DNA of 64,000 nt, taken from NCBI GenBank assembly GCA_027858615.1, contig JAQICJ010000286.1:1926-65925 (forward strand). Direction: 5' to 3'. Positions 19,631 through 57,110 of this stretch are shown piece after piece. The stretch comes from Deltaproteobacteria bacterium (GTDB taxonomy: Bacteria > Myxococcota_A > Polyangia > HGW-17). The position numbers and the translations under genes are program-made. Below the pieces are notes generated by a model. That model saw only the letters and a list, made by a program, of their open reading frames with translations, was not told the DNA's origin and did no database searches. Position 1 is the first letter of the stretch, and every line of letters starts with the position of its first letter.

Positions 19631-19651
19631 ACGGGAACTAGTTAGTTAGGG
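19631..19651. repeat. solo terminal-repeat fragment of the TIR element (ACGGGAACTAGTT AGTTAGGG)
   Basis: Matches the right end of the long copies. It supplies the TAG stop of gene 19638..20603. Confidence 0.55.
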
Positions 19652-31274: not shown

Positions 31275-31380
31275 AATTTTCTGCAGGGCTTTTCCCATTG
31301 TTCAAAAGCTCTTTTTATTGTTTTTTCTTTTAAAACCATCCAATAAATTGTACAAACAGGGCTTAAAATAACTTTAGTAT

Positions 31381-31491
31381 TTAGTTCCCGTTTCAAAAAG
31401 CCAGGTATTCGTCTGAACACGAAAATTTACCTCATCTGCTTTGTCGTAGCTTTTTGAAATAGTGTCAACTATGTCTGAATCGGAAACTATT
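31381..31491. mobile_element. long-type copy A of dispersed TIR element (internally deleted, about 111 bp)
   Basis: Starts TTAGTTCCCG. Shares the conserved core ATTTTACCTCATCTGCTTTGTCGTA...GTGTCAACTATGTCTG with copies B and C. Right end is a degenerate CGGAAACTATTT. Confidence 0.7.
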
Positions 31492-31563
31492 TATCTGTTT
31501 TATCACTTGGATTCTGACCCTTAAATTTATTAATTCAGGATCAGTCAAAGAGAAATAGAGTAT

Positions 31564-33726
31564 ATGTATTCAAATTCAATAAAATATTCCTTTTTCATTC
31601 CTTTTTTTCTTTTCTCATTTTTTTCATGCAGTTCAAACAAGGTGGACAAAACTTCCGTCATCAAAATAAAAATGCCGGAGCAGCCTCTTTTTAAAAAGAA
31701 CAATGCCATTGAAAACCAAAAATTGCCGCTTATTATTGCCTCAGCTCGTTATCATGGCAATAAATGGGGAGTTGATAACTGGAAGCAACTGGAAAAATGG
31801 ATTGAACGCAAAGTTGATAATTATCTGAAATATGAACAGAACGGGAAAGCTTATGAGTTAATGATTCCTTACATGAACATGATGGGCCCGGCTTTTGATA
31901 TTGATCACCAGGTACCTGCTTCCATTGTAAAACAGGCGGAAAGTATCATGGTCAGATTGGAGGCGGCAGGGGACATCAGAAGAACCATGCATTTGTGTTT
32001 GTTTATTAACAAAATCGATGGTGAAAGATGCTCAGAAAAAATGGATCTTCTGGTCAAATGGCTGATTGAATTTGATCGCCTCAAATTTACCCACTGCCTT
32101 GAAGAACAGGACCTCAAAAAGCGTTGTTATGCTACCAGAATGGGTGATGATGTTCTTTTACCCTTAATTTCAAATTGGCCCGGTCGCAAAATGAACAAAA
32201 TCTACTGGCAGTATTATGCGGCTATTATCAATCACAAGGAACTGGTGGATGATATTTCGAATTGGTCCAGTATTATTGATAAATTACCCAAACATGAACA
32301 GGGCAGGTTTTTTGATCGGATTTTATGGCGCCAATTAATTGAAAATGAAGATTTGAGTTTTTTGAAACAAATTTTCAGTAATAGTAAAAACAGAGAAAGA
32401 AATTCTTATCTGGCCAAACTAACCGATCAGATCAAAGATAATAAAAATTCGGTTTTGGCTTTTCACAAATTAGTTGAATATTTTGCCGTCAAATTCAAAT
32501 CAGCTTATAAAATGCAGATATGTAACCTGGTTCCAGAAGAGATTGAAAAATCGGGAATAAAAGAAATGTGCAAGGCTCTGAACATTTTTTCAATTTATGA
32601 CAGCTTGCAGGCTCGTGCCTATCTGCTGGATATCATAAACATCAATCCTTCCTGGGAAGGAGCTTGGGATAAATTGTTCAAGCTCACTCTGATGAGATTC
32701 TACAAATTTATCGAAAATGAAGATTTGGATAATGCTCGCAAGGAGGTGGAATTTTTTCAAAAGATCTTTCAAAGGATGAATCAGATCTGGCCCGACGAAG
32801 ATAATCACAAATATCAGGCAGAGATAGCAATTTCATTGAGTAACCTGTATCAGACCAGGGGCAATCCTGATCGTGCCCGAAAAATTCTGAAAAAAGCTTT
32901 TGCCCGTTCCAAAAATTTCGGACTTTTGGATGAGTTGATAAAACTTGAATATTGGGATGGCAATTATCAAAAAGCCCTGGATTATTTTGAAGAATACAAC
33001 AAAATATCCGAAAATCGGAATTATGCGATGATCCGTTATATGCTTATGGGCAGTTATCTGGGCAGGATCCTGGATAGGATGGGCAAAGACCAGCGAGCTA
33101 AATATACAAGGATGAAAATAATTCGTTACCTCGGTAAGATAGTCAAAGCGGTCAAACACAATCAGGCCAAAAACAAAATCATGTATGTGGCAGGTAATCT
33201 CTACCTGGAATTGGGCAGACCCAAGATGGCGGTTCAAATATATCAATATATAATAGAACGGCAGGGCAGTTGCAGTAATTTGATGCCCATACTGCGCAAT
33301 TTAAGCCAGCGAGGTTATTTCAACGATTCCCTTGATATTTATTACTCTATTCTGGGTTCAAAAATGTGTTCGGAAAACAGAAAGGTTTATGCATCCTTTC
33401 TCATTTATCTTCAGGGATTGCAAAAGAAAGCAGAGAGTTCCAAATTGGAAATAGCGGTAAATTACATCAATAGTTACAGAGGAAGTAAATGGCTCGAAGA
33501 AATAGCTAATTATATCAGTGGAAAGACAAGTTTTGCCGCTTTGCTGAGTAATGCCGATTCTCCCGGTAGAAAGACTGAAGCCTGGTTTTATGGTGCCTTG
33601 AAGGTTTGGGGTGAAAAAGGCTGGAAAGAAGCAAAAAAAAGGCTGGCTAAAGCAACTTCCCAAAAAGTATATATCTTCATAGAGCATTTCTATGCAGATT
33701 TTTTACTTTCCCGGAAACAGGACTAG
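31564..33726 (+). CDS. hypothetical lipoprotein, 720 aa, helical-repeat (TPR-like) rich
   Basis: Signal peptide with lipobox FFSCSS, and W/Y-rich helical repeats. No catalytic motif recognised. Confidence 0.5.
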   Translation: MYSNSIKYSFFIPFFLFSFFSCSSNKVDKTSVIKIKMPEQPLFKKNNAIENQKLPLIIASARYHGNKWGVDNWKQLEKWIERKVDNYLKYEQNGKAYELMIPYMNMMGPAFDIDHQVPASIVKQAESIMVRLEAAGDIRRTMHLCLFINKIDGERCSEKMDLLVKWLIEFDRLKFTHCLEEQDLKKRCYATRMGDDVLLPLISNWPGRKMNKIYWQYYAAIINHKELVDDISNWSSIIDKLPKHEQGRFFDRILWRQLIENEDLSFLKQIFSNSKNRERNSYLAKLTDQIKDNKNSVLAFHKLVEYFAVKFKSAYKMQICNLVPEEIEKSGIKEMCKALNIFSIYDSLQARAYLLDIININPSWEGAWDKLFKLTLMRFYKFIENEDLDNARKEVEFFQKIFQRMNQIWPDEDNHKYQAEIAISLSNLYQTRGNPDRARKILKKAFARSKNFGLLDELIKLEYWDGNYQKALDYFEEYNKISENRNYAMIRYMLMGSYLGRILDRMGKDQRAKYTRMKIIRYLGKIVKAVKHNQAKNKIMYVAGNLYLELGRPKMAVQIYQYIIERQGSCSNLMPILRNLSQRGYFNDSLDIYYSILGSKMCSENRKVYASFLIYLQGLQKKAESSKLEIAVNYINSYRGSKWLEEIANYISGKTSFAALLSNADSPGRKTEAWFYGALKVWGEKGWKEAKKRLAKATSQKVYIFIEHFYADFLLSRKQD

Positions 33727-33829
33727 TACTAACGATTTTACGGATGAGATTGCAATACTGCTTGGTTGTAGAGGGTGTTTTCCTTAAAATCGATAGTTCC
33801 CCTTTACTTTTCTTTGTGGAAATAAAATT

Positions 33830-35167
33830 TTAGAAATAGGGTTTGAGCAGGGTGGTTCCAGGATATCTTGAGGAGCTTCCCAATTCTTCTTCAATTCTGA
33901 TCAATTGATTGTATTTGGCTGTGCGATCGGAACGTGAAGTTGAACCGGTTTTGATCATTCCGGTGCCCATGGCTACCACAAAGTCAGCTATGAAATAATC
34001 TTCAGTTTCGCCGCTGCGATGAGAAACTACAGAAGTATAGCCGTTTTCTTTGGCCTGACTGATTGTATTGATGGTTTCAGTTACAGTGCCGATTTGATTG
34101 AGTTTGATCAGTATGGAATTGGCAATATTTTCTGAGATGCCCTTTCCCAGTCTTTTAGTATTGGTTACAAAAAGATCATCGCCCACTATCTGAGTTTTGT
34201 GACCGATAAGCTCGGTAAGTTGTTTCCAGCCATCCCAGTCGTCTTCGGCCATGGGATCTTCAAGGTTGAAAATCATGGGATATTTATTGATAAGATCGTC
34301 CCAGAAATGAACCATTTCCTCAATAGTAAGAATTTCTCCCGAGGATTTCCAGAATTTGTATCCTTTTTTATTATCTTTTTCAGCCTGGATCCACATTTCT
34401 GAAGCAGCCGCGTCAATGGAAATAACTATCTGGGGATTATCTTTCAAGTTACCGGTGGTATATCCTGCCTGATTAATTGATTCAAGAATAAGATCAAGGG
34501 CTTCATTGGGTGATCTTAAAGAAGGAGCATAACCGCCTTCGTCTCCTACACTGGTGTTGTAGTTGTTTTTTTTCAGAACTTTTTTCAATTGGTGGAAGAT
34601 TTCGCTGACCCAACGAATTCCTTCGGTAAAATTGGAGGCTCCAACAGGCATTACCATAAATTCTTGAATATCAACTGTGCCATCAGCATGTCCGCCACCG
34701 TTCAGGATGTTAGCCATGGGTACAGGCAGGGTTCTGGCATCAATACCGCCAAGATATCTGTAAAGAGGGATCTTGAGAAAGTTAGCAGCTGCTCTGGCTA
34801 CGGCCATAGAAACTGCTAAAATGCCGTTGGCCCCAAGTCTTTCTTTATTTTCTGTTCCATCAGCTTCAATGAGAGCCTGGTCGATAGCAGCTTGATCGAG
34901 AGCATTTAAATCCTGGATTGCATCAAAAAGCTGTCTTTCTACATGATCAACTGCATTCTGGACACCTTTGCCGCCGTATCTGTCTTTATTTTTGTCTCTT
35001 AATTCGTGGGCTTCGTGAATTCCGGTTGAAGCACCGGAGGGAGTGGCTGCTCTTCCCATGGAACCGTTTTTAAGATAAACATCAACCTCAACAGTGGGGT
35101 TCCCACGAGAATCGAGAATTTCTCTGGCTTTTACTGTATCTATACTGCTTGGGCAAAAATTTAACAT
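33830..35167 (-). CDS. eno: enolase (phosphopyruvate hydratase)
   Basis: [25 protein letters not shown] and C-terminal SHRSGETED motifs. Confidence 0.95.
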
Positions 35168-35203
35168 ATGAATCTCCTTGTTGATTGGGATACAATCAAT
35201 TGA

Positions 35204-35374
35204 TAGTCAGTTCCCATTTCAAAATGGATGTCATCGTCTGGCGACGGAATTTTACCTCATCTGCTTTGTCGTAACTTCTTGATATAGTGTCAACTATGTC
35301 TGCGAAGTTACTCCTCGCATCTGAGGCAAACTTCTTCACCATCCAAAAACACCACTTCTGGGACGGGAACTAGT
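35204..35374. mobile_element. long-type copy B of dispersed TIR element (about 171 bp) in the divergent eno / uvrA-like promoter region
   Basis: Left end AGTTCCCATTTCAAAA, conserved core, right end CCACTTCTGGGACGGGAACTAGT. Confidence 0.75.
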
Positions 35375-35562
35375 AAGTCACTTTGGCCTTGATAATAACC
35401 GTAAAGTAGTAAAACACTAATTTGTGCCTGTTTCAGACAAATAATGTCTGAATTCAGACCTGCGGCTTATTGTTAATTAACTTATTTGTAAAAATATGTA
35501 AATATAATTGTAGAAAATTACTATTTTGCAACCAAAAAATCAAAAAACCAAGAAAGCAGATA

Positions 35563-37977: not shown

Positions 37978-38010
37978 TTTGCAGTTATTTTCTGTTTTAG
38001 AATTGAAAAA

Positions 38011-38550
38011 GTGAGAGAAAAAGATATGGACAAGCTACAGATTATATTTTTGATAGCAGCCTTTGGGTTGGGGATTCTTATCTACCGGGTTTTAGCTGTA
38101 TATTTTAAAAAACTCAGGGGTAAAAAATATTATAAACGGGGACAAAAGGGCGAGGTCAAAGCGGAAAAGCTACTGAAAAAAGCAGGTTGGCATATTATTA
38201 AAAGACAGCCAAAAAAAAAGGGAAAACTGGTTTTAGACGGCCAAGAGTTAGAATATAAGGTTCAAGCGGATTTTTTAGTGGAGAAAGGCAAGATCAGAGC
38301 CATAGTGGAAGTGAAAACAGGAAAATCAGCCCTGAAGCCTGCCACCGGAAAAGTTCGTCGCCAGCTTTTTGAATATTACCATCTTTACCAGGAGGACAAG
38401 CTTATTTTTGTGGATGCACCGGCCGGCAAGCTGGTGGAAGTTGCTTTTCCTGAAGCCGGTACAATCAATAAATTCCATCGGATCTTCTGGTTTATTGCAG
38501 GTAATCTTACGGCTCTGGCGAGTATTTATCTTCTGATTGAAGTTCTTTAA
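38011..38550 (+). CDS. membrane-anchored NERD/PD-(D/E)xK nuclease-fold protein (hypothetical)
   Basis: N- and C-terminal hydrophobic helices. Core GEVKAEKLLKKAGWHII...ADFLVEKGKIRAIVEVKTGK resembles the D...E-x-K restriction-endonuclease-like fold. Confidence 0.45.
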   Translation: MREKDMDKLQIIFLIAAFGLGILIYRVLAVYFKKLRGKKYYKRGQKGEVKAEKLLKKAGWHIIKRQPKKKGKLVLDGQELEYKVQADFLVEKGKIRAIVEVKTGKSALKPATGKVRRQLFEYYHLYQEDKLIFVDAPAGKLVEVAFPEAGTINKFHRIFWFIAGNLTALASIYLLIEVL

Positions 38551-38660
38551 AATCAAAAAAAGAAGTCAGCTTTTCAGAAGAAGGACTTTTTGCTATGGTT
38601 CATTTATTAGTTTTGACAATTTTTTTACCTGTCGCAAGTTAGAATTCAATCAACTTGTGG

Positions 38661-38714
38661 TTAGTTAGTTCCCGTCACCAGTCAAAAACCCCCATTCTGG
38701 GAAGGGAACTAGTT
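38661..38714. repeat. short-type (about 54 bp) copy of TIR element: TTAGTTCCCGTCACCAG-TCAAAAA-CCCCCATTCTGGGAAGGGAACTAGTT
   Basis: Both terminal repeats are present with the internal core deleted. Predicted hairpin. Confidence 0.7.
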
Positions 38715-38728
38715 ACAAAGGAGACAAA

Positions 38729-40567
38729 ATGCAGACAAAATATTTATTTAACCTGTTGTTGGCTGGTTTTCTTCTGATAATGGGATGCAAATCCGGACAA
38801 GACAAAGAAGCAACGGGCAATAAGCCTGAAAAAGCGGACAAAAAAACAGTCGGTGCTAAAACCAAAATAAATAACAAACAGATTGAGAAAAAAGCAATGA
38901 TCAAAGAAGTCCAAAAATTCATGGCTGCATACAACCAGGAATTTGCTAACTTTGAACTGGTTGAAACCACAACTTATTGGGCAGCTGCAAACTCAGGCAA
39001 AAAAGAAGATTGGGATAAAAATGCCCAGGCTAAAATCAAACTTAAGCAGTTTCACAGTGATAAGAAAAAATACGAACAAATTCAGAAGTATCTCCAGCAG
39101 AAAAAGATCTTTCCCCCTCTTTTGCAAAGATCCCTGAAAATTGCTAAGTTGGCTTTCAGTGAAAATCAACTGCCTGAAAAAGAACTGAAGCAAATGGTCA
39201 AGGCCGAAAAGGAAATTGAAAGGGCTTTTTCTGCTTTCAGGGGCAAGATTGGGGAAAAGGAATTTTCCAACAATGAGCTTTTGCAAATGCTCAAAAAAGA
39301 AAAAGACAGTAAAAAACGCAAAGAAATCTGGAATGCCCTCAAGAGTACCGGCGAAAAAGTTGGTGACATGTTGATCCAACTGGCCAAAAAAAGAAATAAA
39401 GCAGCCAAAACCCTTGGTTTTAAAAACTATTGGGAGATGAAGATCAAACTGCAGGAACACGACCCGGATCAAGTTCTCAAATTGTTTACAGAACTTGACA
39501 AACTGACTGTTGCACCATTCAAACAGGTAAAGGCTGAAATTGACAAAGAGATAGCGAAAAAACTCAATCTCAAAGGGGCTGAACAGGTTCAGGCCTGGCA
39601 TTACAATAATCCCTTTTTCCAGGAAGCCCCCCCTTCAAAAGAAGTAGATCCCGACATTTTTTACAAGGACAAGAAGAAAGAAGAAATCGTCCAGATAGCC
39701 AGCAAATTCTTCGAAGATATTGCTCTTCCCATCGATGATATTGTTTCAAGAAGCGATCTTTATGAAAGAAAGGGCAAGGACCAGCACGCTTTTTGTATTA
39801 CCATCAATCGCTCAGAAGATGTCAGAACCCTGCTCAATATCAAAGCTTCAGCCAAGTGGATGGACACTATGCTGCACGAAGCCGGGCATGCGGTTTACTA
39901 TAAATTTATCAAAAGGGAATTGCCCCACAATTTAAAAGAAGCTGCCCATATTTTAACCACCGAAGGAATAGCTATGATGTTCGGGGCTTTGGCCAAAAAC
40001 CAGCATTTTCTCAAGAAGTATGTTGAGGCTAAAGATGTAGACAAATACAAAGATGCACTGCTTGAACAAAGACGGCGGGAACAGCTCATTTTCACCAGAT
40101 GGGTTCTGGTGATGTTTAATTTTGAAAGGCAATTTTATCTGAATCCTGATCAGAATTTGAATTCTCTGTGGTGGAAACTGGTAAACAAATATCAACTCAT
40201 TCCCGTTCCCGAAAACAGAAACAAAGCTGATTGGGCTTCAAAACCCCATTTTACAATAGCTCCGGTTTATTATCACAATTATCTCATGGGTGAGCTTTTT
40301 GCCGCTCAATTGCGGAAAAAACTATCAGCACTCGACGGTTACAAAGGTAATCCCGCAGCTCTTAATTTTAATGGCAAGAAAAAATTCGGTGCATTTTTGA
40401 AGAAGGAACTTTTTGCCCCCGGTGCCAGTAAAGAGTGGAATCAACTGGTTAAAGAGGTAACTGGTTCAGAACTTTCAGCTCGAGCTTTTGCCAACGAAGT
40501 AAATTGGAAAAAAGAAGCGACTCCGGCCAAGAAAACCAAAAAAGTCAAAAAAACCAAAAATCCCTGA
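38729..40567 (+). CDS. zinc metallopeptidase lipoprotein (HExxH; M2/M3-like oligopeptidase or dipeptidyl carboxypeptidase family)
   Basis: Lipobox IMGC. A single HEAGH zinc-binding motif in MDTMLHEAGHAVYYKF, and a long helical body typical of M2/M3 peptidases. Confidence 0.65.
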   Translation: MQTKYLFNLLLAGFLLIMGCKSGQDKEATGNKPEKADKKTVGAKTKINNKQIEKKAMIKEVQKFMAAYNQEFANFELVETTTYWAAANSGKKEDWDKNAQAKIKLKQFHSDKKKYEQIQKYLQQKKIFPPLLQRSLKIAKLAFSENQLPEKELKQMVKAEKEIERAFSAFRGKIGEKEFSNNELLQMLKKEKDSKKRKEIWNALKSTGEKVGDMLIQLAKKRNKAAKTLGFKNYWEMKIKLQEHDPDQVLKLFTELDKLTVAPFKQVKAEIDKEIAKKLNLKGAEQVQAWHYNNPFFQEAPPSKEVDPDIFYKDKKKEEIVQIASKFFEDIALPIDDIVSRSDLYERKGKDQHAFCITINRSEDVRTLLNIKASAKWMDTMLHEAGHAVYYKFIKRELPHNLKEAAHILTTEGIAMMFGALAKNQHFLKKYVEAKDVDKYKDALLEQRRREQLIFTRWVLVMFNFERQFYLNPDQNLNSLWWKLVNKYQLIPVPENRNKADWASKPHFTIAPVYYHNYLMGELFAAQLRKKLSALDGYKGNPAALNFNGKKKFGAFLKKELFAPGASKEWNQLVKEVTGSELSARAFANEVNWKKEATPAKKTKKVKKTKNP

Positions 40568-40603
40568 ATCCAAAATTCAATATTAAAAAACAAAGATCAG
40601 GGG

Positions 40604-42037
40604 TCATAAAGCGAATTCTTTAATTTTGTTCTGCAAACCTTTGCGGCTGATTTTGAGTAGTTTGGCGGCTTTACTGACATTGCCCCCGGTTTTTTTGAGT
40701 GTTTTGGCAATTATTTCTTTTTCAATTCTGTTTTTTTCCTGCTTTACAACTTCTTTCAGACCACCCTTGTCCAGAGAATTTTTAGCAGGCAGGTTGGTTT
40801 TGCTGGTATTGTGACTGGAGACGATGATTTCCCCGGGTAAATCCTCGACGGTTATCTGGTTGCCCTCTGAGAGAAGAAGAATTCTCTGGGTCAGATTTTC
40901 CAACTCCCGGATATTACCGGGCCAGGAATAATTTTCCATCATGGTAACAGCCCCTTGGGTGAAATGAGGCAACTGGGGATTGAGATCTGCATATTTGTGA
41001 CAGAAAAAATCGATGAGTGGTTTGATATCTTCTTTACGTTCTCTCAAGGGAGCTAGATTCACAGGAACTACATTGAGGCGGTAGTAAAGATCTTCTCTGA
41101 ACTTTTTTTGTTCCACAAGTTGTTTGAGATTGTGGTTGGTGCAGGCGATAATACGGACATCGATTCTGATGGTTTCTATTCCTCCCACCCTTTCAAATTC
41201 GTTTTCCTGGAGAACTCGCAATAATTTTGCCTGCATGAATAGAGGAATTTCGCTGATTTCGTCGAGGAGGAGGGTTCCTTTGTGAGCCAGTTCGAATTTG
41301 CCGGGTTTTGCACTGACTGCTCCGGTAAAAGCTCCTTTCTCATAACCGAAAAACTCACTTTCCGTGAGATTTTCAGGGATGGCGGCACAATTGACTCTGA
41401 CAAAAGGTTTGTTTTTACGGGGAGACAGATTGTGAATGGCTTGGGCGACGAGTTCTTTGCCGGTTCCGCTTTCCCCGGTAATCAAAACGGTAGAAGCCGA
41501 GGGACTGATCTTTTCGATGAGGGTGAAAACCTGGTTTATTTTGCTGCTGACTCCCACCATGTTGAATTTAGAAGGAATACTATGATCAGAAGGTACGGTT
41601 TGTTTGCGGTATATTTGCTTGTGACTTTTTACAGCTTTGTTGACAGTAGCCAGGAGATGATCCTTTTCAAAGGGTTTTTCGATATAATCGAAAGCTCCGG
41701 CTTTAACTGCAGCAACGGCATTATTGATGGAACCATGGGCAGTAAGAATAATTACAGGTAGATTTTCAGAAATTTCCTTGATTTTGCCCAGAAGTTCCAC
41801 CCCGTCCATTCGAGGCATTTTGAGATCGGTAAGGACTACATCTATTTCAGGATTCTCCTGAAAAATTTTCATTGCTTCTTTGCCGTCAGAAGCTCTGAGG
41901 CAGGAAAATCCATCCCGGGAAAGATGGGTGGAAATTACTTTGCGCAGATTTTTTTCATCATCAACACTTAAAATTGCCGGTTTGGTTTTCAATATTGCCA
42001 TGATCTGAATTTTTATTTCTATTGGGTAAAATGGCAA
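40604..42037 (-). CDS. sigma-54-dependent response regulator (NtrC family): receiver + AAA+ + HTH (probable start at internal Met, 42001)
   Basis: Receiver domain (ILSVDDE...LTDLKMPRMDG), Walker A GESGTGKE, ESEFFGYEKGAFTGA, and C-terminal AAKLLKISRKGL HTH. Confidence 0.85.
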   Translation of the reverse strand: MPFYPIEIKIQIMAILKTKPAILSVDDEKNLRKVISTHLSRDGFSCLRASDGKEAMKIFQENPEIDVVLTDLKMPRMDGVELLGKIKEISENLPVIILTAHGSINNAVAAVKAGAFDYIEKPFEKDHLLATVNKAVKSHKQIYRKQTVPSDHSIPSKFNMVGVSSKINQVFTLIEKISPSASTVLITGESGTGKELVAQAIHNLSPRKNKPFVRVNCAAIPENLTESEFFGYEKGAFTGAVSAKPGKFELAHKGTLLLDEISEIPLFMQAKLLRVLQENEFERVGGIETIRIDVRIIACTNHNLKQLVEQKKFREDLYYRLNVVPVNLAPLRERKEDIKPLIDFFCHKYADLNPQLPHFTQGAVTMMENYSWPGNIRELENLTQRILLLSEGNQITVEDLPGEIIVSSHNTSKTNLPAKNSLDKGGLKEVVKQEKNRIEKEIIAKTLKKTGGNVSKAAKLLKISRKGLQNKIKEFAL

Positions 42038-42144
42038 CAGAAAAATAAAAAAAGAAGATTTTTTTTAAAAAAATTCGATAATAAAGACAGGGTTTCAAAA
42101 AAAATAGAAAAATTTTAGTAGATTTATAAATTCAAAGATGGAGT

Positions 42145-42549
42145 TTGAAGATGGAAACTGAAAATACCAGAATTAGAGGAAAAAAAGCCGAAGAATTTGT
42201 CAAAAAGTATCTGTTGCGTCGAGGATATGAAATTATCGAAGAAAATTTTGAAGTTCATAATTTAGGAGAGATAGATCTTATTGCCAGAAAAAAGGGAATG
42301 GTAGTAATAGTGGAAGTGCGTTCCAGAAAAAAGGTAGTTTTACAGATAAACCCCCTCGAAACGGTAAAAAGACCCAAAAGAAGCAGAATCATCAAGACTA
42401 CAGCGGTATTCTTAAGTAAAAACAAAGAAGTAGTGAAAACAATGAGAGAGTTGAGATTTGACATCGCTTCAATAATTGTTACAGATAAAGGAAAATACAG
42501 ATTAAGGTATCTTGAAGAAGCCTTCCAGGCCAAAGACAGTTGGCTTTAA
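42145..42549 (+). CDS. YraN-family (UPF0102) putative endonuclease
   Basis: GKKAEEFVKKYLLRRGYEIIEENF...GEIDLIARKKGMVVIVEVRSR, the hallmark YraN motif. Confidence 0.8.
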   Translation: MKMETENTRIRGKKAEEFVKKYLLRRGYEIIEENFEVHNLGEIDLIARKKGMVVIVEVRSRKKVVLQINPLETVKRPKRSRIIKTTAVFLSKNKEVVKTMRELRFDIASIIVTDKGKYRLRYLEEAFQAKDSWL

Positions 42550-42802
42550 TGCAATTGATTGTTTTATCTGTTTAATTGTGAACAAAATAACCATTAAAAA
42601 TATTGACAAAATTTTTGAACTGTTGCATTTATGTGCCATAGTAATTAAATGTTAACTGGTTTATACCATTAATTAATTAATTCTGTTTTATTAACCCTTG
42701 CTTTTATTAACTTACTTTAATCTAAATCCGGTTTATTCACCTTAAACCATTTTGCTGGTTTTTGGAAAATAACGGATTTCTACAAATTTTCAGGAGATTA
42801 TC

Positions 42803-43591
42803 ATGAAAACCAAATTACTTTCTATTCTCGCAATTTCAATATTTTTTGTTTTTGCTGGCTGCGATGACGATGAAGACAGCAACAACACCAACAACGTCAA
42901 TAATACCAACAACGTCAATAACACCAATAATGTCAATTGTGGCAATGATATAGTTGAAACCGATGAAGTATGTGACGGCACTGCTCTTGACGGTGAAGAT
43001 TGCACAACAATCGGCGATTATACCGGTGGTGAGCTTAATTGTGCAGCCGATTGCCTTTCCTTTGACGAATCAGCCTGTACTGCCAACACCAATAATGTTA
43101 ATTGTGGCAATGGTATAGTTGAAAGCGGTGAAGTATGTGACGGCACTGCTCTTGACGGTGAAGATTGCACAACAGTCGGCGATTATATCGGTGGCGAGCT
43201 TGACTGTGCAGACGATTGCCTTTCTTTTGACGAAGCAGCTTGTACTGCTGATGCTACTCCGACTCCCGACGGATTTGTCGGATCAAGTTGTACCGATGTG
43301 GCTGATTGTACAGAAGTTGCAGATGCTACAGGTCTTACTGCTGAATGTGTTGAACAATTATCCATGATCACTTTGCCGGACGGTTATTGCTCTTCAACAT
43401 GTGATGTAGCTGCCGATCCCGATCCATGCGGTGATGCTGGTGGTGAATGCGTAGATATCATGGGTATGTTCATCTATTGTTTGCAGCCATGTGTTGAGGG
43501 AAATGGCGAATGTCGTACAGGTTATCAGTGCGCTGCTTTATCCGAAGAAGCTGGTGCTCCCACCTATTGTCTCCCTCCCTTAGGTGTGTAA
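42803..43591 (+). CDS. secreted cysteine-rich repeat lipoprotein (Myxococcus-type CGNG..E.CDG Cys-rich repeats)
   Basis: Lipobox FAGC, NTNNVN x3 low-complexity spacer, two near-identical repeats CGNGIVE.GEVCDGTALDGEDCTT.GDY.GGEL.CA.DCLSFDE..C, and a Cys-rich C-terminus. Locally more G+C-rich than its neighbours. Confidence 0.7.
   Translation: MKTKLLSILAISIFFVFAGCDDDEDSNNTNNVNNTNNVNNTNNVNCGNDIVETDEVCDGTALDGEDCTTIGDYTGGELNCAADCLSFDESACTANTNNVNCGNGIVESGEVCDGTALDGEDCTTVGDYIGGELDCADDCLSFDEAACTADATPTPDGFVGSSCTDVADCTEVADATGLTAECVEQLSMITLPDGYCSSTCDVAADPDPCGDAGGECVDIMGMFIYCLQPCVEGNGECRTGYQCAALSEEAGAPTYCLPPLGV
42935..43250 (+). repeat. two tandem direct repeats of about 165 bp (over 90% identical) inside the Cys-rich lipoprotein gene, preceded by three copies of an 18-bp unit (42893-42946)
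   Basis: Direct sequence comparison of 42935-43099 with 43100-43250. Confidence 0.85.
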
Positions 43592-43735
43592 TAATTTCGG
43601 TTTTCAGTTTATCCCCAGCGGGATAAACCAAATCTGAACTACTTCCATCTTTTTTACTTTTCAATTTACTGCTTATCAGTTCAAATCTCAGGGGTTTTTC
43701 AGCCAATCAGGCTTAATGCGGTTCCAGACCCAGGA

Positions 43736-44743
43736 TCAACTTCCGTCTGTTTCAGCCCAGATTCCGGGAATTTTGTGGTTGCAACCCGGGCATCTGCCTT
43801 TGGCAATCCGGTTGCTTTGTACCTTGTAGCCGTATCTTTCAATCAATATAGTTTGACATTGGGGACAGATGGTATTTTGATAACCTTGTCCCCGCAAATT
43901 TCCCAAATATACAAATTGAATCCCGTTGGATTTAGCGATGGTTCGGGCTTTAAGCAGAGTAGACACCGGAGTGGCGGGTAGATTGCGCAATTTATGGTGG
44001 GGAAAAAATCGGGATATATGCAAAGGTACTTCGGGACCTAATTCTTTGGTTATCCAACGGGTAAGCTGGTTAATTTTCTCTTCGCTGTCATTTTTACCGG
44101 GAATTATCAGAAAGGTGAGTTCGAGCCAAATACCCCTTTGTTTAAAAAGTTTTGCGGTTTCCAAAACCGGTTTTAACGTAGCCGAACAGATGTCCCGGTA
44201 GAATTTATCGCTGAAAGCTTTTAGATCAAGGTTGACAGCATCTATTGAAGGAATCGCTTTGAGCAGGGGCTGGCGATTGATGTAACCTGCTGTAATCCAG
44301 TAGTTCAACAGTCCGCGGCTTTTGGCCTTTTGGCCGATATCAAGGGCGTATTCGTAAAAAACCACGGGATCGGTATAGGTGAGAGCGATTCCCTGGCAGG
44401 ATTTTTTGAGAGCGGTGGTAACAACTTTCTCAGGGGAGATTTTATAAGCTTTTCTTTGCAGGGGAGAAACCTGGGAAAGACCGGCATTTTGGCAGTTGAG
44501 ACAATGAAGGTTGCAGCCGGTGGTGGCAATGGAGAAAGCTTTGGAGCCGGGCAGGACATGAAAAAGAGGCTTTTTTTCCACGGGATCGATGTGAACAGCG
44601 GCGGGTCGGCCATAGGTGAGAGCCAGCAATTTGCCGTTGTGGTTGTAACGGATACGGCAATCACCGGTTTCTCCCGGGGAAATTTTGCATAATTTGGGAC
44701 AAAGGTTGCAGGTAAGTTGTTTATTCATTGACATTTTTTTCAT
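43736..44743 (-). CDS. radical SAM enzyme, AmmeMemoRadiSam-system type, paralog 2 (ORF open to 44773; start probably one of the Met at 44743/44734/44728)
   Basis: CNLCPKLC...GDC N-terminal cluster, DPVEKKPLFHVLPGSK, GCNLHCLNCQN. It aligns along its length with paralog 1. Confidence 0.75.
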   Translation of the reverse strand: MKKMSMNKQLTCNLCPKLCKISPGETGDCRIRYNHNGKLLALTYGRPAAVHIDPVEKKPLFHVLPGSKAFSIATTGCNLHCLNCQNAGLSQVSPLQRKAYKISPEKVVTTALKKSCQGIALTYTDPVVFYEYALDIGQKAKSRGLLNYWITAGYINRQPLLKAIPSIDAVNLDLKAFSDKFYRDICSATLKPVLETAKLFKQRGIWLELTFLIIPGKNDSEEKINQLTRWITKELGPEVPLHISRFFPHHKLRNLPATPVSTLLKARTIAKSNGIQFVYLGNLRGQGYQNTICPQCQTILIERYGYKVQSNRIAKGRCPGCNHKIPGIWAETDGS

Positions 44744-44840
44744 AAAAAAGAGCTTCGTGTCCTGAAAGAACACCGCTTTTGACTGCTTTAATCAATTTGT
44801 TATCCTGTTTGGGGGTATTTTTATCGGTTGCTTTATTCAT
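44721..44840 (-). CDS. small ORF (about 39 aa, MNKATDKNTPKQDNKLIKAVKSGVLSGHEALFYEKNVNE) overlapping the rSAM start; possible coupled small protein. A longer 109-aa frame with a hydrophobic helix extends to 45050
   Basis: Its reading frame ends with TAA 8 nt inside the rSAM ATG region (ATGAATAA overlap). No homology recognised. Confidence 0.25.
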   Translation of the reverse strand: MNKATDKNTPKQDNKLIKAVKSGVLSGHEALFYEKNVNE

Positions 44841-46606: not shown

Positions 46607-46608
46607 TA

Positions 46609-51182: not shown

Positions 51183-51199
51183 AGGTGGGAGGATTTGTC

Positions 51200-51397
51200 A
51201 TGACCAGAAAAAGAAGTGACCAAAAAGACCGTAAAAAAAAATCCGGTGGTGCCATGAGAAGTTTAAGAGGTGGTTTCAAAAATACTGCCAGGAGTTTGAC
51301 AGGTAAATCAAAAAAGAGTAGATCTGTTGACTGGTTGATCAACCTGCTGATTCTGGCCATGGTTATTTATCTGGTTTACAGGTATTTTATTCAATAA
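51200..51397 (+). CDS. small basic protein with C-terminal transmembrane helix (hypothetical)
   Basis: GGAGG RBS 8 nt upstream of the ATG at 51200. K/R-rich N-terminus and a single hydrophobic helix LINLLILAMVIYLVY. Confidence 0.35.
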   Translation: MTRKRSDQKDRKKKSGGAMRSLRGGFKNTARSLTGKSKKSRSVDWLINLLILAMVIYLVYRYFIQ

Positions 51398-51520
51398 ATT
51401 CTTAAATTTATAGTACTCAAGTACAGGCCTGGCAGCTGTTTTAATTCTTCAAATCCATTTTATCCCCTGTTATCTTTTCAGTATTTTATCCTAAAATCAA
51501 AAGCTGCTGGTTGATTATAT

Positions 51521-52411
51521 TTGTCATGGCAACCACAGGGTTACAATCAGAAATATCTTTTTATGTTCAAAATTTTTTGCGGAAATTTGACAATTTTTTT
51601 GCTTCTTAGTTTTTTCATGATCAGGGATGTTCAGAGCAGGAAAAAAAAGAAGGCCAAAAAGAATGTCTGGAATAAAACTCCTCAGATGATGAAATTTATC
51701 AAGAAAATCAAGGTTCCCCAAAAGGGAATGGATAGTCAATGTGTGGCCCGTTTGCGGGCTAAAGGTATTCGCTTTCAATTGTTATCCAAGGTAAAACATG
51801 TTAATACCCCTATCAGAATAAAACAAAAATCTCTGGGTGGTGTTTTGTATCGAAGAGCTTGGAATAACAAGACAGCTCCCTTCATTTTGAATTGCAAAAT
51901 GGTTGAAAATCTTATTCTTGCTGGCCCCTATCTCAGACGTTACGGAATTGCCAGTGCATATTGGACTTCCGCCTGGAGATATTCTTTTATTCACGGGAAA
52001 AAAAAATTAAGTAATCATGTTTACGGGAATGCAATTGATATTACGGCTATTGATGGCGGTTTCGGATATGCTTCTTTGTCAGGACACTGGGAGAGGGGCT
52101 GCGGAGGTTGCGGTCGCAATTGCAAAACAAAAAAAGGAAGAGTTCTGCGAGCCTTTTCATGTGCCACCCGGGGTCGAAAATTGTTTAAAGCGGTTTTAAA
52201 TCCTGATTATGATGCTTTGCACTCTGATCATTTCCATCTGGGTAATCCTGCAGCCAATAAAAAGCTCAAGGTCAAGATTAAGGCAAAACATCTGGCAGAG
52301 ACAAAATCATCTCCAAAATCAAATGGGAGTGTTGTATCCAGAAATCACTGGGTAAAAGGTGAAGTGAAAAGAGATTGGGAACCACCCCGATCCAGACCAC
52401 CTCATTATTAG
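51521..52411 (+). CDS. extensin-like C-terminal domain protein (PF06904-like), secreted/membrane-anchored; start uncertain (alternative Met at 51563)
   Basis: GNAIDI and HSDHFHLG motifs characteristic of the extensin-like family. N-terminal hydrophobic segment. Confidence 0.6.
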   Translation: MSWQPQGYNQKYLFMFKIFCGNLTIFLLLSFFMIRDVQSRKKKKAKKNVWNKTPQMMKFIKKIKVPQKGMDSQCVARLRAKGIRFQLLSKVKHVNTPIRIKQKSLGGVLYRRAWNNKTAPFILNCKMVENLILAGPYLRRYGIASAYWTSAWRYSFIHGKKKLSNHVYGNAIDITAIDGGFGYASLSGHWERGCGGCGRNCKTKKGRVLRAFSCATRGRKLFKAVLNPDYDALHSDHFHLGNPAANKKLKVKIKAKHLAETKSSPKSNGSVVSRNHWVKGEVKRDWEPPRSRPPHY

Positions 52412-52419
52412 TAAATATC

Positions 52420-52443
52420 CCCCATTCTGGGACGGGAACTAGT
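52420..52443. repeat. solo terminal repeat of the TIR element (CCCATTCTGGGACGGGAACTAGTT), 8 nt after the stop of the extensin-like gene
   Basis: Exact match to the right terminus of the long copies. Confidence 0.7.
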
Positions 52444-52663
52444 TCAAAACATGATTTTATTGTCTGAGAAATAAACATAAAATTTGTTTTGGAAAAATTT
52501 CCTGGTTCCAGGCAAAGATTGACACAGATGAATATTCTCAGATTTTTATTTCTTGTTTTGAAATTCTATAAAGAAGAAGAGTATAATATTTTTTAAATTT
52601 TAATTTGGAATTTTTCTCAGTTTATTTTCTGAGTTTAATTCCTGAGATTAGGGAGTTTATTCT

Positions 52664-53500
52664 ATGAACATAAACAAAATAAAGCTCAGACAAATAAAGT
52701 TTTTTCCTCTTTTTTTCCTCTTTTCTACTTTGCTGGCATTGCAGTGGGGCTGTGAAAAGAAAAAAACCTGTCCTTATGGACAGAAAAAAGTTGGAGAGGA
52801 ATGCCGGTGTAAATTTAATTCCAATTGCCCTAAGGACCAGGTTTGCAAAAATGGCAAGTGTGTGGTCAAAGTCAAAAAAGACACCTGTCCCGAGGTGCCC
52901 TGCACCCAGGGAAAAGTTTGCAAAAACAGCAAGTGTGTCAATTGTGAGAATGATCAGGAATGTGGTGATGGAAAACATTGCAGTGACGGTCTTTGCAAGA
53001 AAAATGGCAATGAATGCAGTCCCGATAAAGATTGTCCTCTGGGGCAAAAGTGTGAACATGGGTATTGTGTTGAGCACAAGGGGGTTGGACCAACTTGTAC
53101 AGGAGCTAATTGTATTAAGGCACCATGCAATTTGAAGCCGGTGTTTTTCAATTATAATGAAGCCAGTATTCCCACCTTTTCCCAACAAGCTCTCAAACAC
53201 AATATCGCTTGTCTCAAAAAGGCCTATGCCAAGGATATCAAAAAAATTCACCTGATTGGTATGTGTGATCCCCGCGGACCCACAACTTTCAATGATGACC
53301 TGGCCAGTTTGAGAATTAAGTCAGTAATTGACAGAATGACTCTGCAGGCACCTTCTTTAATGAAAAAATTTGAGACTTCCACTGAGCCCCTCGGTGAAAC
53401 CTGCGCCAAAGGTACAGGCCCCTCAGGTTGGAGGAAAGACAGAAGAGTTCAGATTGTCTGGTATCGCAGTGATAAGGTTTGCCCAGTTATTAAAGAATAA
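52664..53500 (+). CDS. OmpA-family (peptidoglycan-binding) protein with N-terminal Cys-rich repeats
   Basis: Signal peptide, about 8 C-x-x-x-C-type Cys repeats. C-terminal OmpA-like block (IHLIGMCDPRGPTTFNDDLASLRIKSVIDRM). GGGAG RBS. Confidence 0.7.
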   Translation: MNINKIKLRQIKFFPLFFLFSTLLALQWGCEKKKTCPYGQKKVGEECRCKFNSNCPKDQVCKNGKCVVKVKKDTCPEVPCTQGKVCKNSKCVNCENDQECGDGKHCSDGLCKKNGNECSPDKDCPLGQKCEHGYCVEHKGVGPTCTGANCIKAPCNLKPVFFNYNEASIPTFSQQALKHNIACLKKAYAKDIKKIHLIGMCDPRGPTTFNDDLASLRIKSVIDRMTLQAPSLMKKFETSTEPLGETCAKGTGPSGWRKDRRVQIVWYRSDKVCPVIKE

Positions 53501-53511
53501 TCAGGTTTCCA

Positions 53512-54009
53512 ATGAAAACATCAATCTTTGTTTGCAACAAAAAATTTGACTTGGTCAAAAAACTTTTTGTTTTTGCCCTTTTGTTTTTATCACTGGTGGC
53601 TGTGGCAGGTTGTACCAAATATTTTGCTTCCCGCAGCCAATTTGACAAAATTGACAGAGAAGCTGCTTTGGTGGAAGAGGAACTGGCGGATGCCGATCTG
53701 TCCGCACAGAAAAGGTACAAAGTTCTCAGTTCCCAATTAAAGGAAATCAAATCCATAAAAGACGAACGCCAATTGTTTCAAGGAGCCATGAACCGAATGT
53801 CAACAGCTCTTTTTCAGGATATTAAAGAACTGACTCGAGCTGTGGCTGATCTGACCACCAGGATGGACAAACTGGAAAAAAAAGCCGAAGCTTTATTGGA
53901 GAAGAGATCTCGGCAAAAACAAATCGTAGAAAAAAAATGGGATGAAAAGATTAAGAATCTGGAACAGAAAGCCTGCAAAAAATGGCCAGGTCTTGAAGGG
54001 TGCAGATAA
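53512..54009 (+). CDS. coiled-coil lipoprotein (hypothetical)
   Basis: Lipobox VAVAGC, then heptad-rich helical sequence. Confidence 0.45.
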   Translation: MKTSIFVCNKKFDLVKKLFVFALLFLSLVAVAGCTKYFASRSQFDKIDREAALVEEELADADLSAQKRYKVLSSQLKEIKSIKDERQLFQGAMNRMSTALFQDIKELTRAVADLTTRMDKLEKKAEALLEKRSRQKQIVEKKWDEKIKNLEQKACKKWPGLEGCR

Positions 54010-54029
54010 TAATTGGAAAATGAGGAATT

Positions 54030-54884
54030 ATGGTGAAAATTAAAATCTGGTTTTTTACAGGATTGGTGTTTTCTTTTCTCTTGTCGGGTTGCAGTTGGTT
54101 TGTAACCAGGAAAGAAGCCGATCAGATGAAAATTAGAGTTGAAAAAATTTCCGAAGAATTGAAACAAAGAAGAAAAGAAGAAAAAGTTTTTGGTGAGGCC
54201 ATAGTTAATGCAAAAAAAGAATTGAGCAAGGTATCTGAAGCCAGAGAACGCTATCGCAAGGAACAAACGGCTTTTATCAGGAAGGTTCATCTCCTGCTTT
54301 CAAAACTCAATGTAAACATCAGAACTTTTGAAGTAAATCTGGCATCTTTAAAAAAGAAGGTGGACAAAACCCTCAAAAAAGAAGTGGAAGAAATTGAAAC
54401 TATCTTCAAGGAAAGGGCTGCTGAGCTTCAGGAACTGGGAAAAAAATTCAATTTGCTCATTGCCAATTATATCAAGGATTCTCCCCAAAAATTTCTCAAG
54501 TATTACAAGGCTTTTGCTGTAGCTAAAGAGTGGAAATCCCTCAATCGGCATCTGGCCCTGATGAAGTTGAAATATCCTTCTTCAAATGAAATGGAAGAAG
54601 GGTTGATTTTTGCCCTGAAAAAACTGAATGAAGCCAAAGAATACGGTAAAGTAATCATTTATTGCGGGCTCTATCGCCGACTTTTTTCCCAAGGGCCACA
54701 TTATCCCCTTAGCTTGCTGATGGAAGCCGAGGCAAAATATGCCATTATGAATTGCAGTGATGCCATTAAACTGCTTGAAGAATTCAGCAAAAAATTTCCC
54801 AACCACAAACAGTTTTCCAAAGTCAAAAAATTGCAGCAGGATATTTCATCCAAACTTCACTCCAAGATGTATTGTGCCAAGTAA
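54030..54884 (+). CDS. coiled-coil plus TPR-like lipoprotein (CpoB/YbgF-like architecture, hypothetical)
   Basis: Lipobox LLSGC, N-terminal coiled coil, C-terminal helical repeats. Confidence 0.4.
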   Translation: MVKIKIWFFTGLVFSFLLSGCSWFVTRKEADQMKIRVEKISEELKQRRKEEKVFGEAIVNAKKELSKVSEARERYRKEQTAFIRKVHLLLSKLNVNIRTFEVNLASLKKKVDKTLKKEVEEIETIFKERAAELQELGKKFNLLIANYIKDSPQKFLKYYKAFAVAKEWKSLNRHLALMKLKYPSSNEMEEGLIFALKKLNEAKEYGKVIIYCGLYRRLFSQGPHYPLSLLMEAEAKYAIMNCSDAIKLLEEFSKKFPNHKQFSKVKKLQQDISSKLHSKMYCAK

Positions 54885-54953
54885 GGGAATAGTTCCAACC
54901 AATCCAATTCGGTCTAAACATTGATTTTTAGATAAAATTTGCAAAGAATAGCA

Positions 54954-56936
54954 ATGAGTATATTTAAACTTGCCGGTGATCTTGTTCCAGCTGGCGATCA
55001 GAAAAATGCAATCAAAACTATCGTCAAGGGAATAGAAGAAGGAGAGAGGGATCAGATTCTGCTTGGAATAACCGGAAGTGGTAAAACTTTTACCATGGCA
55101 AAAGTTATTGAAGCCACCAGCAAGCCCACTTTAATTCTTGCTCATAACAAGACTCTGGCCGGTCAGTTGTATTCAGAATTCAAGAATTTATTTCCCCATA
55201 ACAGCATAAATTACTTTGTTTCTTACTATGATTATTATCAGCCAGAAGCTTATATTCCAGTAACTGATGCTTATATTGAAAAGGATGCCCAGATCAATGA
55301 AGAAATTGACAGATTGAGGCATGCTGCCACCAATGCTCTATTGTCCCGCCGGGATGTAATTATAATCGCCAGTGTTTCCTGCATTTACGGGATAGGTTCT
55401 CCTGAATTTTATCAGGAATTAGCGATTGAGGTGAAGGTGGGAGACTATATAGACCGCGATGAATTTTTGAGAAAACTGGTTGATATTCAATATACTCGGA
55501 ATGATTACGATTTTTTCAGGGGAAATTTCAGAGTCAGGGGAGATGTGGTGGAAGTTTTTCCGGCTGATGAAGATCGCTGGGCCATCAGAATTGAATGGTT
55601 CGATGATGAGATTGAAAATATCATGGCAGTTGATCCTTTTTTAGGTGAAGTTGGACGCAGATTTCAGCAGTTCAGTATTTTTCCTGGAAGTCATTATGTA
55701 GTTCCCAAAAGGGATTTGAGTCGGGCGATTGACAAGATCAGAGTAGAACTTCAGAAAAGGATTGCCTGGTACAATCGTAATGGCAGAATGCTCGAAGCCC
55801 AGAGGATAGAATTCAGGACAAGTTCAGACTTGGAAATGCTGGAAGTAACAAATTATTGCAAGGGAATTGAGAATTATTCCCGTCATCTGTCAGATCGGAA
55901 AGAAGGTGAACCGCCGGCTACTCTGCTTGATTATTTCCCTGATGATTTTTTGCTTTTTGTGGATGAAAGTCATCAGACCCTCCCTCAGGTCAAAGCTATG
56001 TACAAAGGAGACAAAAGTAGAAAATCCAATCTGATTGAATTTGGTTTCAGACTCCCCAGTGCTTTTGACAACCGTCCCCTCAAATATGATGAATTTCAGG
56101 AAAGGATCAATCAGGCGGTATATGTAAGTGCAACTCCCGCCGATACGGAGTTTGCCTTGACCCAAGGGGTTTTTGTGGAACAGATTATCAGACCCACCGG
56201 TCTCTTGGATCCGGAGATTGAGGTGAGGGGAGTTGATAATCAACTGGATAATCTGCTTGAAGAAATTAAAATCAGAACAGAAAAAAATGAAAAGATTCTG
56301 GCTTTGACTCTTACCAAGCGCATGGCTGAGCAGTTGACCCAGTATTATCTTGATCTTGATGTCAAGGTTCAATATCTTCACAGTGAAATTGACACTCTGG
56401 AGAGGATGCAGATTCTGAAAAGTTTGCGTCTGGGAGAGTTTGATGTGCTGGTAGGAATTAATCTGTTGCGGGAAGGGCTAGATTTGCCCGAGGTCTCTCT
56501 GGTTGCTATTTTGGATGCCGATGTTCAGGGGTTTTTACGATCCGAAACTTCTCTTTTTCAGATTTGTGGTAGAGCAGCGCGTCATGTAGAGGGTAAGGTC
56601 ATTATGTATGCTGATAAGATTACTCCTGCCATGCAAAGTGTAATCCAGGAGACCGAAAGAAGAAAAATAATCCAGCATGAATACAATCAAAAGCATGGAA
56701 TAACTCCTCAGACTATCAGAAAGAAGGTAGATGATCTTTTTGGAATGATAGGAAAAAAACCGGTTCAGGAAGAATATGATCAGGATGTGGATCTCCAAAA
56801 TGAAGTTGAACTGGAAAAAGTTCTGAAAAAGCTGCGCAAGCAGATGCACAAGTATTCAAGAAATCTTGAATTTGAAAAAGCCGCCGCTGCCAGAGACAGG
56901 ATCAAGGAATTGGAAAGCAGATATCTTCTGCAGTAA
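54954..56936 (+). CDS. uvrB: excinuclease ABC subunit B
   Basis: FKL..D..PAGDQ N-terminus, GITGSGKTF Walker A, DESH box, and C-terminal UvrB/UvrC interaction helix ([15 protein letters not shown]). ORF open from 54939; UvrB-like start at MSIFKL. Confidence 0.95.
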
Positions 56937-57110
56937 TTAGTTCCCACCTCAAAAAGGAAGGTCATCGCCTGAACAGTTCATTTTGCCTCATTTGCTTTGT
57001 CATAACTTCTTGATATAGTATCAACTATGTCGGCGAGGTTATTGGGCGCATCTGAGGCAAACTTCTTATTCAGTCAAAAAATCCCATTCTGGGTTGGAAA
57101 CAAATTAGTT
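56937..57110. mobile_element. long-type copy C of dispersed TIR element (about 174 bp), starting immediately after the uvrB TAA
   Basis: Left end TTAGTTCCCACC, conserved core CCTCATTTGCTTTGTCATAACTTCTTGATATAGTATCAACTATGTC..GCATCTGAGGCAAACTTCTT, right end CCCATTCTGGGTTGGAAACAAATTAGTT. Confidence 0.75.

Follow-up and report, generated by a model that had tools for sequence, protein, structure and literature searches.

What kind of sequence recurs, with the same inverted ends and in long, short and solo forms, between the genes of a 64,000-nucleotide stretch of the Deltaproteobacteria bacterium assembly GCA_027858615.1 (contig JAQICJ010000286.1, positions 1,926 to 65,925)? In this text, the whole stretch, whose G+C content is 39.5%, is called the window. 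An earlier sequence-only reading had described the recurring sequences as a dispersed, non-autonomous family resembling MITEs (miniature transposable elements with inverted repeats), and for the copies located at stop codons it had offered either an insertion-site preference or a role as terminator or REP-like sequence. We consider, with a probability of roughly 80%, that the family is indeed a MITE, that is, a small, non-coding element with terminal inverted repeats (TIRs), a target duplication that varies from copy to copy and many dispersed copies, for which a transposase acting in trans is assumed. The TIRs, the flanking duplications, the high copy number in a related genome, the intergenic positions and one pair of filled and unfilled sites all agree with the earlier description in this respect.

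Ends, flanking repeats and copies of the element

The existence of a repeat family beyond chance was confirmed in three ways. The terminus pattern proposed at first matched the 64-kb window four times at up to three mismatches, compared with no match in 100 shuffles. A repeat search of the window returned both the long copies (direct-repeat families D2 and D4) and the right ends (D5), and an nhmmer profile built from 53 copies recovered six elements in the window, with no other match at E<10. In total, the window contains two full copies (161-162 nt), one 104-nt copy with an internal deletion, two short forms of 42-46 nt, one 27-nt solo end and small remnants (Table 1).

The unit reads GTTCCCATCCCAGAA ... 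TTTTGGGATGGGAAC and is 162 nt long. Its TIRs are 15 nt (GTTCCCATCCCAGAA) and stand inverted at both ends as GTTCCCATCCCA(G/A)AA; read along the minus strand of the window, the consensus begins GTTCCCATCCCAGAATGGGGG and finishes CCTTTTTGGGATGGGAAC, and copy B is 87.7% identical to the family consensus. The repeats had thus been recognized correctly, but the limits first assigned to copies A, B and C needed correction, since the real ends are GTTCCC...GGGAAC; the termini quoted at first fit the 5' arm alone, and the other arm reads GTTCCCATCCCAAAAA. Copy A is no simple truncation; it is an internal-deletion derivative in which both tips are present and TATTTA lies on each side. The loci 18451-18525 and 19631-19651 fall outside the range that had been given for the family, and both belong to it. 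The short forms, the 104-nt form and the solo ends are deletion products, and the two short forms are 91% complementary to each other (inverted repeat I3).

Solo 5' ends that stop at a near-constant break point (~27 nt, GTTCCCATCCCAGAATGGGGGTTATT) and then give way to unrelated sequence were observed in the window and at many loci of a related genome (for example L004 7942, L007 7047, L026 6851 and L054 46-72). The sharing of one break point suggests a preferred point of deletion or of abortive transposition.

This related genome is the metagenome-assembled genome (MAG) Polyangia bacterium 20BLK6-1.bin.28 (JAWLEA01), and the loci with L numbers are stretches fetched from it or from other related DNA. 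Its first contig, L054, is syntenic with the window at 14-22 kb and carries orthologous open reading frames (ORFs) of 71-97% amino-acid identity, which identifies JAWLEA01 as a related species. When the right-end pattern was scanned across one genome per species, 51 of the 55 stretches listed came from JAWLEA01, so that at least 51 occur there. The further copies beyond the window for which the sequence-only reading had proposed a search are therefore numerous: 371 kb of pattern-selected JAWLEA01 DNA gave 119 profile matches (73 full length, 26 partial and 20 short), and elements make up 4.2% of the bases in this selected DNA. The spacing of paired ends peaks sharply at 162 nt (45 of the pairs; 56 loci). 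While the mean pairwise identity among copies is 83%, some dispersed pairs are 98-99% identical, which points to fairly recent activity in the JAWLEA01 lineage. ORFs derived from the element are annotated in other Myxococcota and 'Deltaproteobacteria' MAGs and in sister JGI samples, and locus L066 represents the same population as the MAG (99.5% identity). One protein encoded in the window is present on a JGI metagenome contig. Three matches in viral contigs were all due to chance and held no element sequence. In the literature, we found no relevant report of the terminal sequences and no relevant paper on MITEs in Myxococcota. One element copy is truncated exactly at a sequence that by eye resembles a tRNA gene with anticodon GCA (Cys; L039 ~4490-4572).

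On both sides of the core stands TA-NN-TA, or in a few copies TA-NNN-TA. The central NN is the same on both sides in 39 of the 55 full copies, compared with 13% expected by chance (p 8e-23), and the whole flanking hexamer is the same in 29 of the 55, with ten different hexamers represented. Since copies that are 98-99% identical to each other stand beside different NN, the flanking repeat must derive from the target and is no part of the element. The two TA dinucleotides of each flank differ in their constancy, with deviations at 7 of 220 positions for the inner TA and at 29 of 220 for the outer TA (Fisher p 1.7e-4); the greater invariance of the inner one suggests an element of 166 nt with the structure TA-core-TA. 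It is thus probable that the TA on each side belongs to the element and that a 2-bp, sometimes 3-bp, duplication arises at a palindromic site Y-TA/NN/TA-R (the slashes enclose the duplicated bases), where the target consensus has Y at -7 and R at +7. Seen from the 162-nt core, this is equivalent to a footprint in which a direct repeat of 6-7 bp, TA-NN-TA, stands on either side.

One pair of orthologous sites allows a filled and an unfilled state to be compared. The window reads GGAAC TATTTA TCT at 14097-14110, whereas the MAG reads GGGAAC TATTTA, a 162-nt element, and TATTTA TCT. The boundaries are exact, and a remnant end adjoins the site; at the MAG locus (L054 46-246), a solo end is followed by TATTTA, the full element and TATTTA once more. 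This was the only such pair obtained. A duplication of TA only, of the Tc1/IS630 type, was rejected on this one site, as the unfilled site has a single TATTTA and not TATTTATTTA.

About one quarter of the copies have a second element or a remnant end as their immediate neighbor, and arrays with a period of 168 occur, such as the three copies at L020 396-893, two of which are identical. The element therefore tends to land beside its own ends, and local duplication happens too. At L061 1739-1756, a perfect 18-nt palindrome, GGGAAC TAAATA GTTCCC, directly follows the stop of a gene resembling REP-associated tyrosine transposases (RAYTs), and no element body accompanies it. Two element tips in contact, the footprint left by an excision or a naturally occurring preferred target could account for it.

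Each of the 55 full copies sits between genes, with both orientations represented, and none lies inside a gene. Relative to the neighboring genes the orientation is random (21 sense and 20 antisense at 3' ends; 23 sense and 30 antisense at 5' ends), and relative to GC skew 26 of 55 copies point one way, which is no replication-strand bias. Insertions inside genes are presumably removed by selection, whereas those at gene ends are harmless. In 13 of the 55 full copies, the stop codon of the neighboring gene is formed by the flanking TA together with the G (or C) at the tip of the element, and in several further copies the stop lies inside the flanking repeat. In the window, the coincidences reported for the uvrB TAA and for two TAGs of DsbA-like genes were borne out. 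The uvrB stop lies within the flanking TAATTA, and the genes at 18520-19584 and 19638-20603 (both on the minus strand) end in TAGs (18520-18522 and 19638-19640) that consist of the last base of the element and the flanking TA. The TAG of the extensin-like gene (52409-52411), in contrast, lies one base before the truncated inner side of the solo end and does not touch a tip. The stop-codon coincidence arises because TA-NN-TA resembles stop codons and each junction reads TA/G inward, and of the two explanations offered, the insertion-site preference is thus supported and the terminator alternative is not.

The hairpin and the competing explanations

According to RNAalifold on 53 distinct copies, the element folds into one long hairpin with the TIRs at its base and an ATAG/CTAT stem at its apex, the latter invariant in 53 of 53. 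The consensus forms 63 pairs, giving an imperfect hairpin of ~63 bp. The conserved core with two internal hairpins described earlier is in fact the middle part of this single, element-long structure. Copy B has a minimum free energy (MFE) of -70.6 kcal/mol on the minus strand (z -9.3), compared with -52.4 on the plus strand, and copy C has -54.2 kcal/mol (z -5.5). For the short forms, the fold has no advantage over shuffles (z -0.45 for the one at 18475).

The pairing shows covariation. Standard pairs occupy 95.8% of the cells in the real alignment, compared with a mean of 90.7% in shuffles and 33-50% when the partners are slid by 1-3 columns. Changes on both sides that keep the pair amount to 152 cells, against 55 +/- 10 in shuffles (none of 500 reaches 152) and 6-24 after sliding. 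Such compensatory changes occur at 13 pairs, and the pair types alternate, for example CG 28 / AU 9 / UA 9, AU 21 / GC 21, and GC 23 / AU 20. The two strands are not equivalent: the mean MFE is -70.5 on one and -53.0 kcal/mol on the other, with the same strand better in 52 of 53 copies, although these are related by descent and represent far fewer independent observations. The better-folding strand has 7 consensus G.U pairs, compared with 2 on the other. Among minor states, G.U occupies 76 cells and A.C 33; singletons fall at 8 and 10 positions, respectively, and shared states at 15 and 6. These counts of minor states are suggestive, though not conclusive, of one particular strand being the folding one.

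It is important to distinguish between mutations private to one copy and variants that several copies share. Private changes fall on paired and unpaired columns at similar rates (0.53 and 0.48 per column), and pairing is lost in 45 of 57 cases, whereas variants found in at least two copies keep the pair in 428 of 532. Private changes thus ignore the pairs and shared variants keep them, which indicates that the fold is selected during propagation and not at resident copies. The neutral decay of resident copies and their random orientation argue against readings as terminators, small RNAs or REP-like sequences.

These observations can be combined into a mechanism. A DDE-type transposase acting in trans would make a staggered cut at the palindromic, AT-rich Y-TA/NN/TA-R, and the central 2 bp (sometimes 3) would be duplicated. 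A duplication of 2-3 bp at a palindromic AT-rich site, together with the targeting of own ends, recalls the IS30 family, and ISL2 and the IS427-type members of IS5 have 2-4-bp duplications. As the target resembles the junction made by the element, new copies would often land beside resident ends and give rise to head-to-tail arrays, while insertions at gene ends would keep or restore a stop (TA/G) and so be tolerated. The lineages that produced copies retained the hairpin by compensatory changes, whereas resident copies decay neutrally. The folded single strand may assist transposition, perhaps in that it places both ends side by side, and would provide no service to the host at individual loci.

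Several points weigh against this account. A search of the window and of ~0.45 Mb of related DNA, covering ~10% of the MAG, revealed neither an autonomous element nor a transposase with the TIRs of the element, so that mobilization in trans is an assumption. In the window, the absence of a transposase noted earlier was upheld, as 27 ORFs scanned with Pfam showed no transposase domain. The ORFs between TIR-like end pairs 1-4.5 kb apart (56 loci) were all ordinary host genes. Several accepted MITE families, Correia elements among them, are likewise not known to have a cognate transposase. In addition, the single filled and unfilled site has a remnant end (GGAAC) beside it, and the unfilled state could be the result of a deletion between direct repeats instead of a pre-insertion site. 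The copies share descent, and the counts given above overstate independent events. The known host range is narrow, given that a metagenome-contig collection scanned with two patterns gave 0 matches, although the collection apparently does not contain the lineage. Finally, it is not obvious why DDE cut-and-paste transposition should require a hairpin that spans the element and is strand-biased (one strand folds better by ~17 kcal/mol; G.U in 76 cells and A.C in 33).

In a different explanation, propagation would depend on a specific folded single strand (DNA or RNA), and the long hairpin, instead of double-stranded ends alone, would be the substrate or a required cofactor, making the element a hybrid of REPIN and DDE-type systems. 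We regard this as unlikely. The enzyme involved could be new to MITEs, and the RAYT-like Y1 proteins that reside in the same genome could be obvious suspects.

The element might also be a structured non-coding RNA gene, or a cis-regulatory RNA hairpin (terminator, stabilizer or RNase III site), kept by the host at each locus. The very stable hairpin with its covariation and conserved G.U pairs on one strand is what such RNAs would be expected to have, several copies lie at gene ends, and in short and solo forms the 5'-terminal mini-hairpin with its T-run fits a loose terminator pattern. However, the orientation to flanking genes is random, private mutations strike stems and loops equally often and disrupt the pair in 45 of 57 cases, the long hairpin is not followed by a T-tract, the short forms fold like shuffles, and terminator-like counts are barely above shuffled expectation. 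A known structured RNA, which the sequence-only reading had wished to exclude with Rfam, was not detected: only tRNAs reached a gathering score in the window, and the element copies at E<=10 gave chance-level matches far below the gathering scores. A host-kept RNA thus appears quite improbable. The terminator or REP-like role suggested at first is not supported on the same grounds, as only the weak 5' mini-hairpin fits a loose terminator pattern.

The steadily better fold of one strand, its preservation in propagating lineages and the excess of G.U over A.C among shared variants (15 and 6 positions) would also suit a REPIN-like element that is moved as a single-stranded hairpin by a Y1 (HUH) RAYT-like transposase, which cuts and rejoins one strand. 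Such genes are present in the MAG. When the ORFs of the fetched loci were clustered for multi-copy genes, the sole transposase-like family was a RAYT-like gene of 319-321 aa, which matches the NCBIfam model 'REP-associated tyrosine transposase' (REP_Tyr_transpos) at E 1e-12, below the curated cut-off; a PDB sequence search with the protein gave no match. At three loci (L049, L053 and L060) the gene lies at most 120 nt from an element copy, but this adjacency is biased, since two of the three loci were fetched for holding the element, and the position and orientation of the element differ among them. The RAYT-like genes have conserved flanks and a palindrome of their own, CCCAACCGGGTTGGG (L049 971-1030 and 2573-2735; L053 1241-1291), which forms a ~29-nt tandem array downstream of the L049 gene, and two contigs with RAYT homologues (L061 and L062) have no element copy. 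The adjacency is for these reasons probably coincidental, and the genes with CCCAACCGGGTTGGG look like a REP-RAYT system of classical layout that is present in the MAG and absent from the window. Moreover, single-strand Y1 transposition produces no target duplication, whereas NN is duplicated here and differs between near-identical copies, and the orientation shows no GC-skew bias. We therefore judge movement by the RAYT-like enzyme to be very unlikely.

A multi-copy gene for a small protein, suggested by a minus-strand ORF of 48 aa in copy B (35196-35342, with an ATG and 48 open codons) that superficially resembles a Phd/YefM antitoxin N-terminus, and by similar ORFs annotated as hypothetical proteins in related MAGs, can practically be dismissed, because copy C has stops in frame, an in-frame start codon is found in only ~8 of 47 copies, a TGA closes the frame after 3 codons in the GATTG subfamily, there is no Pfam match at E<=0.1, the database homologues are solely element-derived ORFs of 41-79 aa with unrelated tails, and base pairing accounts for the sequence constraints.

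Coordinates and neighboring features

Table 1. Element copies, remnants and the unfilled site in the window, and RAYT-like genes at MAG loci. Profile, the nhmmer profile described in the text.
Feature	Position	Strand	Length	Match	Flanks and context
Short form	18475-18520	+	46 nt	Profile match 18475-18508	First ~31 nt of 5' arm fused to last ~11 nt; TAGTTA (18469-18474), TATTTA (18521-18526)
Remnant	18451-18468	+		Direct-repeat family D18	Duplicates 3' part of short form 18475-18520 (CTGAAAAGAGACGGAAAC); abuts TAGTTA of next copy
Tiny element-end remnant (TAAACGGGAAC), then TAGTTA	19628-19638			Direct-repeat family D18	MAG orthologues overlap here, with no spacer
Copy A, internal-deletion derivative	31384-31487	-	104 nt	nhmmer E 5e-22 at 31384-31477, profile positions 69-162	Most of 5' arm gone, both tips retained; TATTTA at 31378-31383 and 31488-31493
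Copy B, full length	35210-35370	-	161 nt	nhmmer E 1.6e-49, profile positions 1-162	Enolase start (35167) on one side, uvrA on the other; TAGTCA (35204-35209), TAGTAA (35371-35376)
Short form	38668-38709	-	42 nt	Profile match 38675-38709	Perfect TAGTTA on both sides (38662-38667, 38710-38715); end 19 nt upstream of ATG at 38729
Solo 5' end (GTTCCCGTCCCAGAATGGGGGATATTT)	52413-52439	-	~27 nt	Exact match to first-proposed terminus pattern; profile positions 1-36 (match 52404-52439)	
Copy C, full length	56940-57101	-	162 nt	nhmmer E 4.6e-45	Directly after uvrB; TAATTA (56934-56939, holds uvrB TAA stop), AAATTA (57102-57107)
Site without full element, GGAAC TATTTA	14097-14107				MAG orthologue L054 46-246 filled
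RAYT-like gene	L049 1253-2218				Family 31-87% identity
RAYT-like gene	L053 52-1017				Family 31-87% identity
RAYT-like gene	L060 15236-16195				Family 31-87% identity
RAYT-like gene (partial)	L046 3004-3546				Family 31-87% identity

The two DsbA-like genes whose stops adjoin the element encode thioredoxin-fold proteins and stand in a row (18520-20603, confirmed with Pfam); a possible third follows by resemblance at 20600-21442, and a DsbD-like gene lies at 28968-30086.

The window also contains repeats of other kinds. Within the response-regulator gene at 26573-27862, six tandem copies of a 51-nt (17-codon) unit occupy 27029-27408. A 165-nt tandem duplication (42920-43248, 92% identical) lies within the ORF at 42803-43591, which has no Pfam match and resembles repeat domains that the MAG encodes in large FG-GAP/DUF4215 proteins (L006, L007 and L047). 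There are two paralogous sigma-54 activators (2614-4536 and 40604-42037, ~43% identical) and two paralogous radical-SAM genes (4531-5553 and 43736-44773, ~42% identical), the latter sharing stretches of 26 and 41 nt at 81-85% nucleotide identity. The activator and the radical-SAM gene are adjacent in the pair at 2614-5553, and two ORFs stand between them in the pair at 40604-44773.

Significance and comparison with known elements

The family explains one class of spurious 41-79-aa ORFs that are annotated as 'hypothetical protein' in MAGs of Myxococcota, as well as repeat-rich intergenic regions and stop codons donated by an element. Private mutations that ignore the hairpin, set against inherited ones that preserve it, form a clean natural experiment, in which the fold seems to matter for new copies and not for the host. 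The target Y-TA/NN/TA-R and the habit of landing by resident ends are clues to the missing transposase.

The properties of the family agree with those commonly described for bacterial MITEs, which include a length of 100-200 bp, TIRs, TA termini, duplication of the target, a long stem-loop and contiguous pseudo-ORFs, with both long and short forms known (PMC2229807). Correia/NEMIS elements of Neisseria are similar to the present family in being non-coding sequences of 100-155 bp with TIRs and terminal TA that occur between genes in hundreds of copies, have a long form and a short one with an internal deletion, and give a long stem-loop transcript (PMC2229807). They differ from it in their unrelated sequence and in duplicating TA only, compared with the TA-NN-TA footprint here, and the host here is an uncultured low-GC member of the Myxococcota. 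The bcr1 element of the Bacillus cereus group is likewise a mobile repeat of ~155 bp with short flanking direct repeats, a distribution that varies between strains and compensatory changes that keep the double-stranded structure (PMC3184786); it has a 5-bp duplication and a cruciform-like structure of two independent stem-loops and is transcribed, whereas a single rod-like hairpin and TA-NN-TA are found here. YPAL/RU-2 (168 bp) and ERIC/IRU of enterobacteria resemble the family in forming imperfect palindromes (127-168 bp) and in containing a contiguous ORF without being a gene, and filled and empty sites are known between related species (PMC2229807). Their TIRs are much shorter (7 bp, compared with 15 nt), and in the present family none of the 55 full copies lies within a gene.

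REPIN/REP-RAYT systems share with the family the dispersed, hairpin-forming repeats that cluster in arrays, and a RAYT-like gene family occurs in the same genomes. REPs are, however, palindromes of 20-40 nt that flank the RAYT gene and lack a target duplication, whereas the element described here has duplications and the RAYT-like genes have other palindromes. A PATE derived from IS200/IS605, which would have no TIRs, no duplication, insertion 3' of a fixed tetra- or pentanucleotide and a strand bias with respect to replication, was rejected, since TIRs and duplications are present and the GC-skew orientation is 26 of 55.

In short, the general picture of such elements is unchanged, as comparable properties are found in Correia, bcr1, ERIC and YPAL. 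The kind of element is already known; its sequence, its host lineage in low-GC Myxococcota, its TA-NN-TA footprint and its single rod-like fold are new.

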